From NCBI GenBank assembly GCA_964648765.1, contig CAZYLF010000001.1:480632-544631 (forward strand): 64,000 nucleotides of DNA, in the 5' to 3' direction. Below the pieces are notes generated by a model. The model saw only the letters and a list, made by a program, of their open reading frames with translations. It had not been told where the DNA came from and made no database searches. This document shows, piece by piece, positions 53,760 to 64,000 of the stretch (its first letter is position 1; the number at the start of each line of letters is the position of its first letter). The stretch comes from an uncultured Candidatus Saccharibacteria bacterium (GTDB taxonomy: Bacteria; Patescibacteriota; Minisyncoccia; Phycocordibacterales; JACOZG01). Both the position numbers and the translations under genes were made by a program.

Positions 53760-55742
53760 TTAAGACACAGGATTGCAAGCCGCACACACACCAAATTCTT
53801 CTAACTTATCTAAATATTTAATTACAGCTCTCACATATTCCGCATGGCTCCAAACCAAAGGCGCCACAGAGAGAGATTCGCCAGTATGAGGATTCAGTTG
53901 CTCAGACAAGATACCAGAGGGCGAAGCGTACTTAAGTACCCAACGAAAAATTTCTCTAACTGGTTCAAGATCCTTCTCATTTTTAGCTTGATCAATTATG
54001 TAGTGAGCTGACCACAAACTTGGCACAAACCAAGGGTTACCAGGGGTATTCTTATCAATTTGATAATAGTTATCACCGGTATATCTTGCCACTCCACCCA
54101 CCAAAGTTTTAACTCTTAAAGCTTGATCTGTAACCTTAAGTGCCTTTATCAACCTTTCATCGTCATGAGTTAAAACTTTAAATTGATAAACTCCAAACGC
54201 GCTTGAGGCGTCAATTGCTTCGTCATAAACTAGCTCGTCTTGATTAAATGAAAGCATTTTATAAAAACAGCCACGTTTTTCATCATACAGGTGCCGTAAA
54301 ATTGCCTCTTTAACCTCACGCGCAGCCCGGCGATAAGTGTCCTCATTTTTTATTTTACCTAAAAGTTTAGCAAACTCACTGGCTACGGTTAGCGCACCAT
54401 ATACAGCCGATGAAGAAAATGTCGTCACCCCTAGCTTCTCCTCCCAAAGATCGTAACTCTCTTTAGGCAAACCAGTGCGCGGATCGCGATAAAGTACCAT
54501 AAAGTCCGCAGCTTTTTTAATTAGTGAGTTATAAATTTCCTCAATAAATTCTAAATCTTTAGTGACGGTGTAATACTCCCAAAGTGAGTAAATTACCAAA
54601 GCGGTTTCATCTTCTTGAATTGGCAATTGAGCTTGACCATTTCTAAACCACGGATGCCATGAACTACCGAGTGAGCCGTCAGGACTGTATTTATGCATAA
54701 AGTAGCCTTCGTCAGAAATAATTTTATTACAAAATGCAAAAAAGCTTCTTGCCACTGAACCGTCTCCTGCAAGAGTGAGTGCAAGTGCGGTAAACGAAGC
54801 ATCGCGTGGCCATACATAAGCATAAGTATCCTTGCCTTTTTGCAAAGTATTGGAATCTCCGGAAGCAATAATCGCCCCATTAGTGCTGGCATGGGCCCTC
54901 ATTATTAATAGCGATTGATTAAAAAGTTTTACCAGATCAGGCTCAAGACCATAAAAGCTAAAATTTTGGCGGGTTACCCAGGCTTGCCAATAATTTTTTG
55001 TAGTCTCGACTAAATGCCCCGCACCCTTGGCAAGCACATAATTGTTAAGTTCCGTGGCCTCTTTAATTGATGTGGCAACCGTGAGCCAGTAATATAAAAT
55101 TTTTGTCTCATCTGGCTTATAAACTCCAGTGAGTGCTATAAATGAATCGGCGGGGCCATGCTCAATTGGGTTTTTTTCTAACTTTCCGTCGATTGCGTCG
55201 TACTCTGTACCCTCTTTACCATCCACACCAAATACTCCAGTACTAAAGTCATCAAAATTGCGACCTTCAAGTTGAGCATTAATTAAAATGGCGCGCTGGT
55301 TACGGTAATGGATTACTGTGTTGTTTGAAGGGTTAAAGTAGGCCGTGTGTGCCGAGCGGGATTCTGTGAGCTCAAATTTATGACCAAAGAAAATCTTAAT
55401 CTTGCGCTCGCGATAGGCCAAGTTTTTTATTAAAATTTTACGAACAAAAATATCCTTTTCATTATAAACAAGATCGTTGAAGAAAATTGAAAGTTCAAGA
55501 TCCTTATTTATAGCCATAGTCTCGCCCGCTAGCACATTTGTTTCAGTTTTAATTTCAATCTTCCAGGCGCCGTCATCAATAAATGAAAAAACTCCATCCA
55601 CCCACACGCCCACGCGGTGAGCAAAACGCCCACCGACTTGGTTCTCTAACCCAATATAGGGGAAGTACAAATCTCTCACCTCGGCACGCTCGTCGAGATT
55701 AATTAGGATACGTCCATTACCGAGGGTGAGCGCCTTCGACAT
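53760..55742 (-). CDS. GH15-family glycoside hydrolase (glucoamylase/glucodextranase/trehalase-like)
   Basis: 660 aa, an N-terminal beta-sandwich region followed by an (alpha/alpha)6-barrel-like region rich in W/Y/E; weak family-level similarity only. Confidence 0.55.
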   Translation of the reverse strand: MSKALTLGNGRILINLDERAEVRDLYFPYIGLENQVGGRFAHRVGVWVDGVFSFIDDGAWKIEIKTETNVLAGETMAINKDLELSIFFNDLVYNEKDIFVRKILIKNLAYRERKIKIFFGHKFELTESRSAHTAYFNPSNNTVIHYRNQRAILINAQLEGRNFDDFSTGVFGVDGKEGTEYDAIDGKLEKNPIEHGPADSFIALTGVYKPDETKILYYWLTVATSIKEATELNNYVLAKGAGHLVETTKNYWQAWVTRQNFSFYGLEPDLVKLFNQSLLIMRAHASTNGAIIASGDSNTLQKGKDTYAYVWPRDASFTALALTLAGDGSVARSFFAFCNKIISDEGYFMHKYSPDGSLGSSWHPWFRNGQAQLPIQEDETALVIYSLWEYYTVTKDLEFIEEIYNSLIKKAADFMVLYRDPRTGLPKESYDLWEEKLGVTTFSSSAVYGALTVASEFAKLLGKIKNEDTYRRAAREVKEAILRHLYDEKRGCFYKMLSFNQDELVYDEAIDASSAFGVYQFKVLTHDDERLIKALKVTDQALRVKTLVGGVARYTGDNYYQIDKNTPGNPWFVPSLWSAHYIIDQAKNEKDLEPVREIFRWVLKYASPSGILSEQLNPHTGESLSVAPLVWSHAEYVRAVIKYLDKLEEFGVCAACNPVS

Positions 55743-55744
55743 TC

Positions 55745-56104
55745 TTAAATTTTATAGCCTTTCAAACTTTTATTAACCGCAGTTAGTGTGGCGCTTATTG
55801 TTTTGGCTTTAGAAATTGCTTGGGCAGTTTTGTCATCTTTAAGTACATGCTTTACCCAATTGGCGAAATCATTACCGCCGTTTTTAGTGTGGAAGTTGTA
55901 ACGTGCCACATCAATTACTTCAAAGTAATTTGCTAACTCTTTTAGACTGCGAAGTACTGGCCCACTACTAACCCAAAACTCTTGACCACTTGGGGCGTAT
56001 ACCAAACTTGGTAAATCGGATTTTGTTTTTGTTACTTTTTTTGGAGTAACCACCTTTGTTGTTTGCACTTTTGGTTTCATAAAATTTAAAATAAAATCTT
56101 TCAT
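55745..56104 (-). CDS. Hypothetical protein within the glucan-metabolism cluster
   Basis: 119-aa ORF tightly packed between the GH15 and GH57 genes. Confidence 0.35.
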   Translation of the reverse strand: MKDFILNFMKPKVQTTKVVTPKKVTKTKSDLPSLVYAPSGQEFWVSSGPVLRSLKELANYFEVIDVARYNFHTKNGGNDFANWVKHVLKDDKTAQAISKAKTISATLTAVNKSLKGYKI

Positions 56105-56137
56105 ATTAATTAATTATTGTTACTATATTTTAACAAA

Positions 56138-57349
56138 CTAGGATTTTTGTGCATTAGCGCTATCCACTCTTAGCTCTAAATCGTGCGCAGCGTTCATGTA
56201 TGCAATATAAGCGTCGTATGGAGATTGATAAGGATTAAAGTAAGCATGCACGTCGCCATCAGCAAACCACTTTGTGCACATGTAGTAAAAGTGGTCAGAA
56301 GTTTGAAGACGACGCCAAGATTCTTGAAGACTTTTACTTTTAACATTTGCCATCCGAGGCTCAAGGGCATAGATACGATCAAGAGCCGAGCGTTGCATCT
56401 CATTTCCTGTCCAAGCGGAGAGATCGCGCTCGGTGTCGGCCCAAGTGAGGATGTGCGGCACATCGAGATCGTCAGACACCGGGAACTTCCTTACTGCTTC
56501 ATCCACAGTGACAAAGTTATTGTCGGGGTGTTTAAGAATCTCGCCCGGCAAATGACGTAAGAATTCAAAGATGCCCGTGTCAGCCCATTGATGCTCACCA
56601 AAAGTCTCGTAATCCATAAAAAGATTAACGAGGTGTCCATTGCCGTTGATGGCGTTTACCCACTGGGCAAATTTAGGAGCATTGAGTGGGTACTCCTTCC
56701 ACGACTTCTCGCCGAAGCGGAAGGCCATGTCGTCAGATAAGCGGTAATTTTTTAAAAGTAATTTAATCTTCTTGGCACCCTTCGGTCGGTATAAAAAGTT
56801 GGGGCTCCGCCAGCCAAGATAATGATCCCAACCTTCGGTTACAACACCCTCATAACCCTTTTTATCGGCCCAGACGCCTACGTCGTTACGATATGAGAGC
56901 TCAGTATTGCGGAAAACTTTAGGTTTAATTCCAAATAATTTTTTAATTTTAGCTTCGTGGAGTTTAACTTGCCGCTCAAACTCTTGTGGTGAATAGAAAA
57001 AGGCTAAGGAATGATAGTAAGTCTCGCCAAGCACACTCACCCGCCCCGTCTCCACTAACTTTTGGAAGACTTCAATAACTTCTGGCGCATTTTCCTCAAG
57101 TTGCTCGAGAGCCAGGCCAGAGAAAGAAAAACTTATTTTAAATTCTGGATGTTTTTTTAATAATTCTAAAAAGGTTAGGCTGGCCGGTAAATATGACTTC
57201 TCCGCGACTTTCCGCAAAATCCGCGCGTTGTTTAAATTAGTTTCCGAATCGTCATTAAAATATTCACTATCACGTCCAACGTCAAAAATTCGATACTTCT
57301 TAACCCGAAGTGGTTGATGAACCTGAAAATATAAACAGACCGCTGGCAT
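56138..57349 (-). CDS. GH57-family alpha-glucan-active enzyme (alpha-amylase/4-alpha-glucanotransferase/branching-type)
   Basis: N-terminal CLYFQVHQP and central MDYETFGEH (catalytic Glu region) are hallmark GH57 segments. Confidence 0.75.
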   Translation of the reverse strand: MPAVCLYFQVHQPLRVKKYRIFDVGRDSEYFNDDSETNLNNARILRKVAEKSYLPASLTFLELLKKHPEFKISFSFSGLALEQLEENAPEVIEVFQKLVETGRVSVLGETYYHSLAFFYSPQEFERQVKLHEAKIKKLFGIKPKVFRNTELSYRNDVGVWADKKGYEGVVTEGWDHYLGWRSPNFLYRPKGAKKIKLLLKNYRLSDDMAFRFGEKSWKEYPLNAPKFAQWVNAINGNGHLVNLFMDYETFGEHQWADTGIFEFLRHLPGEILKHPDNNFVTVDEAVRKFPVSDDLDVPHILTWADTERDLSAWTGNEMQRSALDRIYALEPRMANVKSKSLQESWRRLQTSDHFYYMCTKWFADGDVHAYFNPYQSPYDAYIAYMNAAHDLELRVDSANAQKS

Positions 57350-58232: not shown

Positions 58233-58934
58233 GTGAGGAATAGTATGTTACCAAGTAGCGCAAAAACCTCTTTGGAACTCCGCACAGAGGCGGCAACACT
58301 TCGTTTTTTGGGTAACCAAATAAGAGAGGGTACCCCCATTTGCGAAGCAATCACAGAAACAGTAAAAAACTTCCCTGATTTTTCGGAAGCTCTCCAGACC
58401 GCCCTTCATCAAATCCGGGAGGGAGACTCATTCCATACTGGCTTGATTGGTTATGAATGGTGCTTCCAAGATTTTGTCCCCGGTATGATCGGAATTGGGG
58501 AAGAAACAGGTCTACTGGACGTGACGTTACTCCAAGCGGCTAATTTAGTCGATCAAATGGCCACCGTGGTTGAGGGCGGAAAGAAGTCCAGTCGAGATCA
58601 GATTGCAGCCATGATTGACTTTTGGATGCTCGCGGAACTCATGAGCGCCGGTTTACCCCTTGTGCGCTGTTTCGAAATTTTGGAACAGACGTCAAGAAGT
58701 CGCTCAAAGAGTTATTGGGGTGTTTTGAGTGGTATGATTGCGCACCAGAGCCTGAGTATAGTAATGGGTTGGCATGCTGAGCACTATCTCCTATTCAACA
58801 CAAACGATGTGAGTAAAATGTTTCAAGTTGAAACCAAGTATATGGCTGATCATGAGGCCCGACGCAAAGATGAGCTACGACCGCAAGTGATCCGAGATAT
58901 TTACGAACGACATTATAAGGAGATCTTCGGTTAG
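58233..58934 (+). CDS. Truncated PilC/GspF-like protein (single T2SSF domain, no TM platform)
   Basis: FPDFSEALQ...FVPGMIGIGEETGLLDVTLLQAANLVDQ matches the F-P-x-(L/M)-x3-(M/I)-x3-GE-x-(S/T)G-x-LD core of T2SSF domains. Second-repeat start AELMSAGLPLVRCFEILEQ. Only 233 aa. Confidence 0.45.
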   Translation: MRNSMLPSSAKTSLELRTEAATLRFLGNQIREGTPICEAITETVKNFPDFSEALQTALHQIREGDSFHTGLIGYEWCFQDFVPGMIGIGEETGLLDVTLLQAANLVDQMATVVEGGKKSSRDQIAAMIDFWMLAELMSAGLPLVRCFEILEQTSRSRSKSYWGVLSGMIAHQSLSIVMGWHAEHYLLFNTNDVSKMFQVETKYMADHEARRKDELRPQVIRDIYERHYKEIFG

Positions 58935-59063: not shown

Positions 59064-59333
59064 ATGTGCCAACATCAGGCCAATGGAGAAAGAAGCTTCT
59101 GGATCTTGTTGTGGGTAGTTACTATGTTTACGTCCGCAATTCCCTTTGCTAGGGGCGAGCGTGGAATACTCGACAAGGTTGGACTAGGAATCGGTATTCT
59201 CATGGCAGTCATTCTAATTCTGGGTTTTGCTTTTGAATTTTATTGTCACAGGCATCCAGAATTTGTAGAACAAATGGAAAATGAATTTCAAAATGAGGAA
59301 GAAGAGCGGCGAAAAAAACTAGAGACCAAATGA
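59064..59333 (+). CDS. Small 2-TM membrane protein (89 aa) with charged C-terminus
   Basis: GAAAGGAGGGG RBS; two hydrophobic helices; terminator follows. Confidence 0.4.
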   Translation: MCQHQANGERSFWILLWVVTMFTSAIPFARGERGILDKVGLGIGILMAVILILGFAFEFYCHRHPEFVEQMENEFQNEEEERRKKLETK

Positions 59334-59609: not shown

Positions 59610-60812
59610 TTATCTCGTCACCTGCTGATAAATCCCTAAACACTTCTTGGCCGATTCAAGCCAGGTGGTGCGGCGAGCTTCGGCTTCGCCGTGGAGAGCC
59701 AAAGTGCGCTGAAGTGGCGCGTGATTAATAACGCTTAAAATTTTATCGGTCATATCATCAATATCCCAAAAGTCTGCCTTAAGCGCATGTTTGAGCACCT
59801 CGGCCACGCCAGATTGGTTAGAAACTAAAACCGGCGTGCCATTCACCAACGACTCAAGCGGCGTAAGTCCAAACGGTTCGGAGATGGAAGGGAGCACATA
59901 AAGATCAGCCGAAGCATAAAGATCATTTAACTCTTGCCCGCGCAAGAAGCCACAGAAGATCACGCGGTCAGAAATGCCAAGCCGCGCGGCGTCATCAATG
60001 GTTTGCCTTTCCATATCGCCTGAACCGGCGACAATAAAATATACTTTCGGATTAAATTCTAAAACTCTTTTCGCCACTTTTATAAAATAATCGGGACCTT
60101 TTTGGAGGGTAAGACGACCAACAAACAGTACGATTTTATAACCCGCCTCTTTTAATTCTTTCAATCTCACATTTTGTCCGCGATATTCATCAGAGTCGAT
60201 CCCGTTGTGGACTACTTCAATTTTATGTTCCGGAATGCCGTAATGCTTCATCACGATATTTTTGGTCCAACGACTTATAGCAATCACCTTATCAGCCAGA
60301 GTCATCCCAGCCTTCTCAATTTCATAAACTTGCTGGTTTACTCCACTGCCACCCGTGCGATCAAACTCCGTGGCGTGAACATGCACCACTAACGGTTTAC
60401 CACTCAATTTCTTCGCCATCATACCGGCCGGGTACGCCAACCAATCGTGCGCGTGGATCACATCAAACTTTTGATTTTTAATTACTGCGCGCGCCCGCTC
60501 ACCATAAAGCCGCACCTCATCGATTAAATTGCGACCATAAATACTTGGTCCACTACCTCTGATCTCCCCGTACTTTTCTGAAGTAATGTAGGGGTAAACT
60601 AAAGTGTCGACTGTTTGGAGCGAGAACTTCTGAATATCAGCGAAGATCATTTTCATAAAGTCGGCACTCACATCCACTCTTTTTGGGAGCACGAAGATCA
60701 CCTCGGTGGGTAAGGTGCACATGGCTTTAGTTAAGCCAAAGCAAGCTGTGCCTAATCCCCCACTATTATGAGGGGGGAACTCCCAGCCAAACATTAGAAC
60801 CTTTAAATTCAT
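59610..60812 (-). CDS. Archaeal-type glycogen/starch synthase-like glycosyltransferase (GT-B, GT4/GT5-like)
   Basis: N-terminus KVLMFGWEFPPHNSGGLGTA resembles archaeal GlgA; C-terminal E-x7-E GT-B motif (EPFGLTPLESL); sits beside GH57/GH15 genes. Confidence 0.6.
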   Translation of the reverse strand: MNLKVLMFGWEFPPHNSGGLGTACFGLTKAMCTLPTEVIFVLPKRVDVSADFMKMIFADIQKFSLQTVDTLVYPYITSEKYGEIRGSGPSIYGRNLIDEVRLYGERARAVIKNQKFDVIHAHDWLAYPAGMMAKKLSGKPLVVHVHATEFDRTGGSGVNQQVYEIEKAGMTLADKVIAISRWTKNIVMKHYGIPEHKIEVVHNGIDSDEYRGQNVRLKELKEAGYKIVLFVGRLTLQKGPDYFIKVAKRVLEFNPKVYFIVAGSGDMERQTIDDAARLGISDRVIFCGFLRGQELNDLYASADLYVLPSISEPFGLTPLESLVNGTPVLVSNQSGVAEVLKHALKADFWDIDDMTDKILSVINHAPLQRTLALHGEAEARRTTWLESAKKCLGIYQQVTR

Positions 60813-60821
60813 GATGTGTCA

Positions 60822-62564
60822 TCAAGGTGCAATGTCCTTGATCTCTTTTCGGACAAGCTTCTCTGCTTCATTTAGATCACTCTTCAACCTATGCATTATT
60901 TTGGTCTCTTCGTCTGTTAAAGCGCGAGCAATTTTAGTTTTTTCAAGTATCTTCAAATGTTCCTGCAGATCTTCTCGTAAAATATCAAACGCTTTCTCAA
61001 GTGTTGTTTGCGCCTCACCTACCTCTTTACGCACATGATACTTATAACGCCTTGCCTGTCGCCAACTTGAAAGAATTAATAAAATCAAGATTAAGAGTAA
61101 GGCGAGCATTGGGATGAACAAGGTCAAAAAGTTTACCGTCCAATTACTTACCCTATTTAACCAGCTACGCTCCACCACAATTATTACTGGATCGCTACGT
61201 AAACTCTTTACACCATTTTGTTTGGTGACAATACCTGAAAAAAGGTAAACGCCATTTTTAAGTGACTTGGCATCAAAACTAAAAGCAAACTCACCGTTAT
61301 CATCACTTGTGACTTTTTGCTCAATTTCCCTTTCAGCATTTCGGCCGTAGTAGATTGTGACTTCTGAATTCAGATAAGTACGTCCCTTAATAGTAGCCAC
61401 TTCATCGGCGGCAATTCGGGATGGATATTCAGTAAATAATGGTGGGTTGATTGATTCAACTTCGATATCTAAATAGTCTGTAAGGTAATTACCGGCAAAG
61501 TCGATAGCGCGGGCAATTATAGTATGCTTGCCACTTGGCAGATTGTCGGCTTGGTAAATTGTTTTGCTGCCATTCTCAACATCTATCTGTGCAGGAATAA
61601 TTATGGCTTCACCATCACCAACTTTAATTTCATATTCTTTAATACCAGAGCCGCTATCGCTTGCACTTAGACTAAATCGCACAAAGGCCTCTGAATTATC
61701 CGATCTTGGGATTTCTTCAAACTCAAAAGTTTCTGGTTTAAGTGTGTCAATTTGGAAGCGAAAGTGAGAAACTGGGCCCCAACCAGCGGCATTACGTGCT
61801 TGAGCATGGAAGTAGTACGCGCCATCTTTAACATCAGGTAGAGCTTTTTCAGTTAGACGATAGTCATAAAACACACTTGGCTGGGAAGCTGCGTTTCTGT
61901 CGTATAGCAGTCTTACGGCCAACACGTCACGTGGCAGACTCCAATTAAATTCTGGGTCACTGTTTGCATACCAATTATCTGGTTCGGCGTGAGTGTCGGA
62001 TTTAATTACAATAGCTGATGGCAAAGTCCCCGCAATTGGCGCAGTTGGAGTAACTGGCACGGGAGTCGTAAGTAAACCCGGAGTCGGTCCAATTACAAAA
62101 TTTGCTGTACCAAGATTGGTGAGCACATTTGTGCCAAGTCCGTCATTAGCAAGCACCGCGCCTTGAGAGAACTTTAAGCCGGCATTACCCTCAGCTTTGG
62201 CTCTAAAGGTTAAAGTAATTAAATTTGTGCCAACACCTTGATAGCCTGGATTTAAAATAATGCCCTCAAAACTTGCAGTGCCATTAGTGTTAGAGAATGT
62301 TGGTTCTTGTACCCATAAACCTATACCTTGTGACACTTTAACTAAGCTAACGAGAGTTAGTTTATCGGTAGGGAAAGAAATATTTGATTGGATGGCGTTA
62401 ACCGCCTTGTCGGTGCTGGCAACTAAAACAGAAACGGAAAATACGTCACCAATTTTGTAACTACCTGTGGCCGGAGTAAATCTAAGATCCGCTGCGTTAG
62501 TTACTGTTGTAAGACAAAACAGCAATATAATGAGCGCTGCTATTTTTATGATAAATTTTTCCAT
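60822..62564 (-). CDS. Large cell-surface protein: signal peptide, beta-rich ectodomain (cohesin-like?), C-terminal TM anchor + cytoplasmic coiled-coil tail
   Basis: Signal peptide MEKFIIKIAALIILLFCLTTVTNA; TM LTLFIPMLALLLILILLIL near the C-terminus followed by a charged tail. Confidence 0.45.
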   Translation of the reverse strand: MEKFIIKIAALIILLFCLTTVTNAADLRFTPATGSYKIGDVFSVSVLVASTDKAVNAIQSNISFPTDKLTLVSLVKVSQGIGLWVQEPTFSNTNGTASFEGIILNPGYQGVGTNLITLTFRAKAEGNAGLKFSQGAVLANDGLGTNVLTNLGTANFVIGPTPGLLTTPVPVTPTAPIAGTLPSAIVIKSDTHAEPDNWYANSDPEFNWSLPRDVLAVRLLYDRNAASQPSVFYDYRLTEKALPDVKDGAYYFHAQARNAAGWGPVSHFRFQIDTLKPETFEFEEIPRSDNSEAFVRFSLSASDSGSGIKEYEIKVGDGEAIIIPAQIDVENGSKTIYQADNLPSGKHTIIARAIDFAGNYLTDYLDIEVESINPPLFTEYPSRIAADEVATIKGRTYLNSEVTIYYGRNAEREIEQKVTSDDNGEFAFSFDAKSLKNGVYLFSGIVTKQNGVKSLRSDPVIIVVERSWLNRVSNWTVNFLTLFIPMLALLLILILLILSSWRQARRYKYHVRKEVGEAQTTLEKAFDILREDLQEHLKILEKTKIARALTDEETKIMHRLKSDLNEAEKLVRKEIKDIAP

Positions 62565-63388
62565 CAGCGACGTCTAAAAAATATTTTCAATGCCAAAAAG
62601 CCGAGACCAACGGCCATGATAATAATTATACTCCATAAAAAATATGGATGAAACGGAAAACTTGGATTACTGGGGTGGATAACTTCAATTTTTGAGTTTT
62701 CAAACTTATCTACGGCCTTGATATATACAAAACTACTCAAGTTTTGATCCTTTAACTCAGCTGGGCTAGTCACTTTTTGCCAATCTAAGCGCGATTCTCT
62801 GACCGGAAACCAACTTTGACCCTCTGCTATTTCGTAATGGTCAATACTGCTTTGTTTATCAACGGTTGAGAATACAATGAAATTTTTACCATCATATAAA
62901 TCCTCTGATTTAGAAATTAGTGGTGTAAACGACTCTGGAGGTAATAAATCAGTTACCTCTGTTTTATTATTAAGCTCTAAATTTACTAAGTTTTTAGCTT
63001 CTAAATTTTTAAAAACAACAACTGATTTTGTCCCTGCACCATCGTTAAGCAAAACTTCAGTATTTGTTTTGTCCCAACTTAGCGAATTCAATTTTGGCTC
63101 ACTCAGCATTGTAAGTGAAAAGATTTCGCCATTTTTGCCAACAAAGCCCCCCGGACGGATACCGGAAAAAACAAGTTTATTATCTATAATTTTAGGTTCT
63201 TCAAGCCAAAAATTAATAATTGAACTATTGATTTTCAAACTTTCTACTTTGGTTTGAGGCGAAAGGTAAATAGATCCAGAAATTGCATTTATAGATACTT
63301 CAGAATCTATATTAACTAACACTTCATATGTGCCACTCAAGTTCTTTAAAACTTTAAAATATAGTTCAGCCATAATTACCCAGTCCAA
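62564..63388 (-). CDS. Cell-surface protein with C-terminal TM anchor (beta-rich, cohesin-like?)
   Basis: C-terminal LWSIIIIMAVGLGFLALKIFFRRR anchor; start/stop overlap with both neighbours. Confidence 0.4.
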   Translation of the reverse strand: MDWVIMAELYFKVLKNLSGTYEVLVNIDSEVSINAISGSIYLSPQTKVESLKINSSIINFWLEEPKIIDNKLVFSGIRPGGFVGKNGEIFSLTMLSEPKLNSLSWDKTNTEVLLNDGAGTKSVVVFKNLEAKNLVNLELNNKTEVTDLLPPESFTPLISKSEDLYDGKNFIVFSTVDKQSSIDHYEIAEGQSWFPVRESRLDWQKVTSPAELKDQNLSSFVYIKAVDKFENSKIEVIHPSNPSFPFHPYFLWSIIIIMAVGLGFLALKIFFRRR

Positions 63389-64000
63389 TAATAAGCCATA
63401 ATACTAAAGTCGATCAGGTCAACTTTAGTATCGCCGTTTAATTGACCTGTCTCCTTAACTGCAAACTCTGTACTTAGTACTCGTTTATACCAGTACGCCG
63501 CAATAGAGAAATCAACTAGATTTACCTTACTATCGCAATTTAAATCTGCTTTTACTGCACACCCCGTAGGTTGCGCGCCAATTGGTATATTTTGAGTACC
63601 CACCTTAAATGCAGCCGCCACACCGAAGGCACTGATTTCACTCGAAGTTGCGGCTTTGGATTTTGCACTATGATCACCAAACTCAAGGGGCGCCGTATCT
63701 AAATTGTAGAGATAGATACCCGATGTGTCAGAATTAGTGTTAAAGAAAAATGGCACAGGAGAGTTTACGTTGATTGTTACATTGGCACTTGGAGTCGTTT
63801 GGCCAAAAATTGCTAAATTATCTCCTTGTTTTACTTCTTGTTTGTCTACCGCAAGCGTAGGGGTGATGAAAATCCCACTAATTTTCGTTACGGCACCACT
63901 TGTGATCTCAAGAGGAAAGGAGAAAAGGCTGGAACGTCTGCCAGCATTATCTTCTCCGTAAAGCGAAAAATTATAATCACCTGAAGAAAGACTAGTGAGC
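63376..64000 (-). CDS. Dockerin-repeat-containing protein, 5'-truncated by window edge
   Basis: The minus-strand frame stays open to position 64000 (manual translation ...NVTINVNSPVPFFFNTN...). The C-terminus carries two tandem 22-aa dockerin-like Ca-binding repeats: DLNCDSKVNLVDFSIAAYWY and QLNGDTKVDLIDFSIMAYYW. Confidence 0.5.
   Translation of the reverse strand, partial: LTSLSSGDYNFSLYGEDNAGRRSSLFSFPLEITSGAVTKISGIFITPTLAVDKQEVKQGDNLAIFGQTTPSANVTINVNSPVPFFFNTNSDTSGIYLYNLDTAPLEFGDHSAKSKAATSSEISAFGVAAAFKVGTQNIPIGAQPTGCAVKADLNCDSKVNLVDFSIAAYWYKRVLSTEFAVKETGQLNGDTKVDLIDFSIMAYYWTG

Follow-up and report, generated by a model that had tools for sequence, protein, structure and literature searches.

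What do three adjacent genes at the end of a patescibacterial contig encode, and do their products bind one another? The genes, here called A, B and C, lie on the minus strand in the last 3.2 kb of a 64,000 nt stretch (the window) of contig CAZYLF010000001.1, which comes from an uncultured, ultra-small bacterium deposited as Candidatus Saccharibacteria. A first-pass annotation had read them as an operon for a dockerin-ending protein (A) and two secreted, membrane-anchored proteins with cohesin-like domains (B and C), and had proposed searches with the Pfam families Dockerin_1 and Cohesin, together with structure prediction, as a check. As a whole its observation is partly confirmed, and its cohesin-dockerin interpretation is supported: A, B and C probably make up a docking system of the non-cellulosomal cohesin-dockerin kind, which the Patescibacteria (Candidate Phyla Radiation, CPR) have conserved.

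Three consecutive minus-strand open reading frames (ORFs) were found as claimed: A at 63376..>64000, B at 62564..63373 or 62564..63388 and C at 60822..62564. The frame of A is open up to the window edge at 64000, and the gene indeed runs off the window; the part inside (63376..64000) encodes residues 228–434 and the stop codon. Full-length A (434 aa) was read in an 8.9 kb Logan contig, L001, that reaches beyond the window (L001:5778-7082). The B and C proteins are on record as exact matches (P0099 and P0001) on contigs of up to 553 kb (that of P0001). The reported translational overlap is present between B and C, where it amounts to one base (TGATG), but A and B overlap only if B begins at a TTG at 63388 and not at the ATG at 63373 selected by the gene caller, 2 nt after the TAA stop of A. 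Promoter-like sites around the cluster were no commoner than in shuffled sequence and a scan found no terminator-like site between the three genes, so that their spacing is the sole argument for an operon.

Dockerin and cohesin domains

The C-terminus of A is a dockerin module of about 60 residues. It contains the duplication seen in the first pass: the protein ends in the 22-residue segments DLNCDSKVNLVDFSIAAYWYKR and QLNGDTKVDLIDFSIMAYYWTG, which are identical at 12 of 22 positions and start 34 residues apart. A C-terminal pair of such segments, each about 22 residues long and joined by a short linker, is the layout of Dockerin_1. Repeat 1 (A residues 379–400; 63481..63546, minus strand) is an F-hand calcium loop followed by a helix, and its ligands D1, N3, D5 and D12 are present in all 60 aligned A relatives, with N9 in 58. 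Repeat 2 (residues 413–434; 63379..63444, minus strand) has a degenerate loop according to the family alignment. Its position 1 is Q in the window and varies among the 60 members (15 K, 12 D, 11 R, 5 Q and 5 H), and the other ligands are N3 (47/60), D5 (58/60), D9 (44/60) and D12 (60/60). The D-x-N-x-D-x3-(N/D)-x2-D motif described for the duplicated segment is complete in the first repeat, but the second lacks its initial residue. The helix FSIMAYYWTG of repeat 2 is almost invariant, and L10, D12, F13, S14, I15, A17 and the Y/W positions of the helix are near-invariant in both repeats. These residues presumably form the interface, and their constancy would fit one plug for two or three sockets.

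The identity of the module as a type-I dockerin is upheld by its family. Against Dockerin_1 (PF00404), the window fragment of A scored 19.8 bits (E 9e-4) and full-length A 17.7 bits, with a gathering cut-off of 22.9; when NCBIfam and Pfam were searched with the window proteins alone, this sub-threshold match was the only one to a dockerin and there was none to a cohesin. Dockerin_1 was matched by 52 of the 60 relatives at E ≤ 0.01 (best 3.9e-9), and the profile of the A family retrieved solved dockerins from the PDB (2y3n_B at 6.9e-5, then 5nrm_B, 4fl4_A and 1daq) as well as FN3 domains. A single-sequence PDB search with the window fragment gave seven top matches that were all dockerins or dockerin-bearing proteins, each of them weak (E 0.037 to 1.3). 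Because of these seven, and because the window dockerin matches the A family profile with an E value of 2e-35, the likeness to dockerins goes beyond chance.

The cohesin domains comprise residues 1–125 of B (62999..63373, minus strand) and residues 25–165 of C (62070..62492, minus strand). Pfam Cohesin (PF00963) did not match either window protein at E ≤ 1, and single-sequence PDB searches with B and C were uninformative. Among homologues, PF00963 found a match in 26 of the 57 relatives of C (best 6.1e-9) and in 2 of the 23 relatives of B, and some relatives of both proteins are titled 'cohesin domain-containing protein' by NCBI. The B and C family alignments are paralogous (hhalign E 1.7e-44); common to the two proteins are the N-terminal domain and an Ig domain in which the motif D..SGI..YE...A.D.AGN occurs. 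A solved cohesin, that of Ruminococcus flavefaciens ScaB (5aoz_A), was found by both the B profile (1.7e-4) and the C profile (0.036).

An AlphaFold2 (AF2) model of C residues 22–175 is all-beta, with a predicted local distance difference test score (pLDDT) of 94.3. Nearly all of its top 44 Foldseek matches in the PDB are cohesins, led by 6kgf_C (E 4.3e-10, TM-score 0.69–0.72) and followed by 4dh2, 2vn6, 1g1k, 2xdh and 4ums. In the model of B (pLDDT 86.8) the N-terminal domain is also all-beta, and this model matched the Clostridium perfringens cohesin-FN3 double module 2w1n (3.6e-6), the Archaeoglobus fulgidus cohesin 2xdh (TMt 0.64) and 6kgc_A (TMt 0.64). Both models have the beta-sandwich jelly-roll of about 140–150 residues that defines a cohesin, and the beta-rich N-terminal domains and cohesin-like scaffold of the first pass are thereby borne out. 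Of the outcomes it had named as fatal to its proposal, neither the want of a dockerin match or calcium loop nor folds unrelated to cohesins was seen.

Near-invariant positions among 79 B-type and 112 C-type cohesins are N56, W84, P88, G101, G107 and L138-x-N-D-G-x-G144. The L-x-N-D-G-x-G loop, which follows strand 8 (residues 138–144 of C in the window, with an equivalent in B), is common to the 191 domains and near-invariant in them; as far as we know, cellulosomal cohesins do not have it. When strands are assigned by their order in the model, N56, W84/P88 and L138–G144 would lie in or beside strands 3, 5 and 8 of a putative 8-3-6-5 face, a suggestive arrangement.

Stalks and membrane anchors

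Read from its N-terminus, full-length A has a signal peptide, a conserved head (about 55 residues), FN3, a poly-Gly linker, the Ig domain Big_6, another beta domain and, last, the dockerin. Among the 60 aligned relatives, Pfam found Big_6 in 57 and fn3 in 28. No catalytic module or carbohydrate-binding module (CBM) was found by Pfam in the A family, only FN3/Ig-type modules besides the dockerin, and A is regarded as a non-enzymatic stalk protein. Reading the whole of A, as the first pass had advised, thus brought FN3 and Ig modules to light but no catalytic ones, and its suggestion that the system assembles surface enzymes is unsupported. A run of 16 glycines (A residues 171–186; L001:6288-6335, just outside the window) joins the FN3 domain to the Ig stalk, and this linker is kept across the A family.

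Gene C (60822..62564, minus strand) encodes a long anchor of 580 aa. From record P0001, Pfam and the family profile, it reads as a signal peptide, cohesin, Big_13 domain (6.7e-12), Big_7-like domain (2.6e-4), a fourth, Bap-like Ig domain, a transmembrane (TM) helix and a tail; the C family profile also matched the Bap Ig repeats 7dm0_A (1.2e-7). The TM helix (about residues 477–501; 61062..61136, minus strand) has a hydropathy maximum of 3.17 over 19 residues. The tail, predicted to be cytoplasmic (residues 502–580; 60825..61061, minus strand), has 79 residues, 43% of them charged, and a heptad-type hydrophobic periodicity of 3.5 residues that was reached by only 1 of 2000 shuffles; it is coiled-coil-like and conserved through the family (e.g., L549 and E553). 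Secretion, a membrane anchor and a coiled-coil tail were all claimed for this protein, and its sequence has a signal peptide, a TM helix and a coiled-coil-like tail to match. Many genomes carry two C genes: in C1 (about 390 aa) the cohesin is followed by the last Ig domain, and a TM helix leads into a tail of about 80 aa, whereas in C2 (about 445 aa) it is followed by Big_13 and the Big_7-like domain, and the tail behind the TM helix is shorter. The single 580 aa protein of the window combines both.

Gene B (62564..63373, minus strand) encodes the short anchor, of 269 aa from the ATG, in which a cohesin is followed by a single Ig-like domain and a TM helix with RRR behind it, as seen in the exact match P0099 and the AF2 model. 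The TM helix (FLWSIIIIMAVGLGFLALKIFF; 62576..62641, minus strand) corresponds to helix residues 242–268 of the model. This part of the earlier description stands, but secretion of B is not borne out: the window protein has no N-terminal signal peptide, and six codons before the TTG a TAG stop closes its reading frame. In the alignment, it starts exactly at the signal-peptide cleavage site of most orthologues, 67 of 82 of which are above the hydropathy threshold, with several more borderline. About six further B loci also lack the signal peptide (L006, L009, L010, L021, L041 and L077), and in some relatives (L006 and L009) the first cohesin strands are absent too. The N-terminal part of B, about 240 residues, would need to cross the membrane despite the missing signal peptide. 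A fusion of A and B by −1 frameshifting, or a hidden signal peptide of B, was considered and rejected, since no frame is open upstream and no classical slippery heptamer was seen; the homologue match lists held no fused A-B protein.

These features raise the question of whether, in the lineage of the window, B is a copy that is decaying or has been put to another use, residing in the cytoplasm or anchored by its tail with its bulk facing inwards, so that only C anchors A on the surface. The loss of a signal peptide that is usual in orthologues, shared by B and its closest relatives, and the further loss of strands in L006 and L009 would agree with such a fate. Against it, relatives without signal peptides still align with B at 77%, 54% and 49% identity and every family-invariant residue is retained, and B is therefore not obviously decaying; its AF2 model is confident, and the RRR that follows the TM helix predicts a topology with the N-terminus outside. 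We hold a changed role for B to be possible, if on the doubtful side, and return to B and C as a pair of anchors.

Gene linkage across the Patescibacteria

Relatives of A are encoded in at least 516 species genomes (one genome per species), and the best 80 of these loci were examined by a profile search of all ORFs. A B-type cohesin gene follows A in 80/80 loci, and one or two C-type genes are present in 77/80, the exceptions being two contig ends and L058. The search was also run in reverse, from distant homologues of C and B, and returned four clusters, each with a dockerin-ending gene. Their dockerin carriers are a giant of 1610 aa (L082), a stalk-only protein of 308 aa (L084) and proteins of 297 aa (L086, where the C gene is inverted) and 431 aa (L087). 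In none of the related clusters examined do the dockerin and cohesin genes lie apart from each other, and this linkage holds when the carrier changes in size from 297 to 1610 aa. On the computational evidence the domain identities, the membrane-anchor architecture and the phylum-wide linkage of the genes are established. In two of the distant loci, the dockerin gene comes after a row of three or four paralogues, each for a secreted protein of about 350 aa (L084:749-4145 and L086:9898-13716); the ones read in L084 start with ...SGMSDT.S.AK.ST.SNH and end with ...YVGTANF.

The two closest relatives of A are 91% and 83% identical to it. Apart from these two, the 120 relatives listed have about 50–63% identity and come from Parcubacteria/Paceibacteria, Taylorbacteria and Peribacteraceae, and loci from Magasanikbacteria and Uhrbacteria fall within the same range. 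Identities are lower for the anchors, at 28–40% for B and 26–43% for C. Several metagenome-assembled genome records with the operon (TPA_asm records L033, L048, L050, L051 and others) are titled 'uncultured Gammaproteobacteria' or 'Saccharibacteria', and are probably mislabelled bins.

A phmmer search with the 69 residues of the dockerin against 1.84 billion representatives gave 1178 matches at E ≤ 1e-3, and in all of the best 150 the dockerin is at the C-terminus. The Big_6-Ig stalk of A is present in 130 of these 150, 22 of them with the full-length A body and 108 without the N-terminal part of the A profile. Many proteins of this set (P0243-P0391), about 330–380 aa long, share the stalk and dockerin, and those inspected carry other N-terminal heads, often Cys-rich, such as CGNG..GE.CD and C.DG.DND.DG..DYPDDP. 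A shared Big_6-Ig-dockerin cassette with varied heads suggests interchangeable dockerin-tipped ligands.

From these data, we infer that dockerin and cohesins bind each other, and we propose the following arrangement. A would be exported by the Sec pathway as a rod of FN3/Ig-like domains, with the conserved head at its N-terminus and the type-I-like dockerin at its C-terminus. B and C would each be held in the cytoplasmic membrane by their single C-terminal helix, with one cohesin at the far end of a stalk that is short in B (one Ig domain) and long in C (three). The dockerin of A, loaded with calcium at least at its first site, would plug into both cohesins, so that A would stand on the cell surface at two levels above the membrane. 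The conserved, heptad-periodic tail of C is probably a means of dimerising the anchor or of linking it to the inside of the cell. The role of the assembly may be structural or adhesive, in envelope architecture or in contact with a host cell. As no enzymes are carried, it looks like a surface docking device and not a cellulosome.

Several observations weigh against this proposal. The second calcium loop is without its canonical Asp1, making the dockerin asymmetric; A scores below the gathering cut-off of Dockerin_1; and the window's own B and C escape the Pfam Cohesin model. Without a signal peptide, B may fail to bring its cohesin to the cell exterior. The unusual conservation of A argues against host-specific adhesion, and for a conserved ligand or a structural role in place of host-specific recognition.

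Some of these points would suit a different arrangement, in which A, B and C act together on the surface without any binding between their dockerin-like and cohesin-like modules. The dockerin could then be a calcium-stabilised terminal module, or could bind the cell wall or a giant neighbouring protein described below, and the cohesins could serve as spacer or adhesin domains. The degenerate second loop and the missing signal peptide of B are both compatible with this, and we know of some non-cellulosomal dockerins and cohesins without a demonstrated partner. Other genes, moreover, recur upstream of A, in a neighbourhood that was read in L001 (L001:17-5774, beyond the window) and in the genome loci: in 49/77 loci (median gap 60 nt) a single-TM protein of 127 aa directly upstream, in 48/77 a giant secreted protein that bears Gly_rich_2 and LVIVD beta-propeller repeats, in 17/77 a Beta-lactamase2-like protein and in 10/77, all from the clade of the window, a single-TM protein of 144 aa. 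The dockerin helices, however, are nearly invariant, and the invariable adjacency of dockerin and cohesin genes, even where the carrier is of a very different size, speaks against modules that do not interact. We consider independent modules unlikely.

A miniature cellulosome-like scaffold for dockerin-tagged carbohydrate-active enzymes, for which the cohesin and dockerin folds themselves and the nearby GH57, GH15 and GT4 genes could be cited, is highly improbable and was rejected, because A and its family are free of catalytic modules and CBMs, a profile search found no further cohesin or dockerin ORF in the 64 kb window, no enzyme module was seen on the best 150 of the 1178 carriers of an A-type dockerin (130 of which share the Ig stalk), and the GH57/GH15/GT4 genes look like intracellular alpha-glucan metabolism.

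The glgA-like GT4 glycosyltransferase gene begins 9 nt after the stop codon of C, near the GH57 and GH15 genes, and was rejected as a member of the cluster, being adjacent in 0/80 related loci. Together the three (53760-57349 and 59610-60812) appear to be a glycogen-type set, and a GH15/GH57 pair also adjoins the cohesin cluster in L084. The same part of the window holds a plus-strand ORF of 233 aa (58233-58934) with a single T2SSF/PilC domain (3e-12) that looks truncated, and a membrane ORF of 89 aa (59064-59333, plus strand) with a weak VirB3-like match (0.004). The remainder of the window carries housekeeping genes, such as those for UvrA, UvrB, TGT and two tRNA synthetases.

Relation to known systems and significance

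The type-I cellulosomal pairs of Clostridium thermocellum, C. cellulolyticum and C. acetobutylicum (CaCohA2-CaDoc0917) have the same cohesin fold (6kgf, 6kgc, 4dh2, 2vn6 and 1g1k; TM-score about 0.7), and in them, too, the ligand protein ends in two F-hand repeats; the plug-and-socket principle proposed for A-B-C is theirs. With OlpA and OlpC, the cluster shares the presence of one cohesin per anchoring protein. Sequence identity to the type-I pairs is only 10–20%, however, and the differences are many. In cellulosomes, dockerins sit on catalytic subunits (glycoside hydrolases, carbohydrate esterases and polysaccharide lyases) and a scaffoldin carries several cohesins and a CBM, whereas A-B-C has no enzymes, no CBM and no multi-cohesin scaffoldin; B and C have one cohesin each and no CBM match. 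Their anchor is a C-terminal TM helix and not surface-layer homology (SLH) domains or a sortase signal; no SLH domain was found in B or C, nor was an LPXTG motif noticed. The second calcium loop without Asp1, the L-x-N-D-G-x-G signature of the cohesins and a non-cellulolytic CPR host are further distinctions, and the conserved cytoplasmic coiled-coil tail of C and the phylum-wide conservation in CPR genomes set the cluster apart from known systems in general.

Closer in use are the cohesin-FN3 modules of C. perfringens GH84C (2w1n, 2jh2 and 2vo8) and the A. fulgidus cohesin 2xdh, which serve non-cellulosic purposes and have a cohesin followed by an Ig/FN3-type module; 2w1n and 2xdh are also the best fold matches of B. 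In C. perfringens, cohesin and dockerin modules join secreted glycoside hydrolases, whereas the partners in A-B-C are a non-enzymatic stalk protein and membrane anchors in a conserved operon. The nearest functional counterparts are these pairs from outside cellulosomes, of A. fulgidus and C. perfringens, together with anchoring proteins that bear a single cohesin. The type-III system of R. flavefaciens offers another comparison, as its ScaB cohesin (5aoz/5m2o) was found by the B and C profiles and ScaE is a single-cohesin surface anchor; ScaE, however, is the sortase-anchored base of an enzyme-carrying cellulosome, and A-B-C lacks an X-module. The stalk of C resembles adhesins of the Bap/Big_13 type, matching both Big_13 and the Bap Ig repeats, but it has only three repeats, with a cohesin on top, a TM anchor and a cytoplasmic tail.

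A dockerin-domain envelope protein of the cultured saccharibacterium Southlakia epibionticum, SEML1_0315, is reported to be essential by transposon sequencing (PMC10633639). Its gene (2784 nt, about 927 aa) is monocistronic, lies between tRNA and hydrolase genes and has no adjacent cohesin genes; it was rejected as an orthologue of A on account of size and gene context. In the literature on cohesins and dockerins in CPR, Patescibacteria or Parcubacteria, no published description of the operon was found, with a coverage that was incomplete and is not proof of absence. Already known are the domain names in NCBI records, and we class the operon as a variant of non-cellulosomal cohesin-dockerin systems.

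For the envelope of CPR bacteria and their hold on a host, very few surface proteins come with a testable mechanism. The operon, present in at least 516 species genomes, offers one, as it predicts a binary, calcium-dependent plug-and-socket interaction. With it, cohesin-dockerin biology comes to include a highly conserved form that is anchored in the membrane and free of enzymes. Its near-invariant dockerin and its own cohesin subfamily (L-x-N-D-G-x-G) might also be put to use as an orthogonal affinity pair. In a bolder version, which is speculative and improbable as a whole, the operon would be the core of a phylum-wide docking platform, whose cohesin-tipped anchors hold interchangeable dockerin-tipped proteins and are coupled inwards through the coiled coil of C. 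Its cargo would include the conserved A rod, variants with short Cys-rich heads and giants above 1600 aa, and the absence of a signal peptide from B in some lineages might then reflect an unconventional route of export or assembly. If true, such a platform could underlie an envelope layer or the host-attachment structure of these episymbionts.

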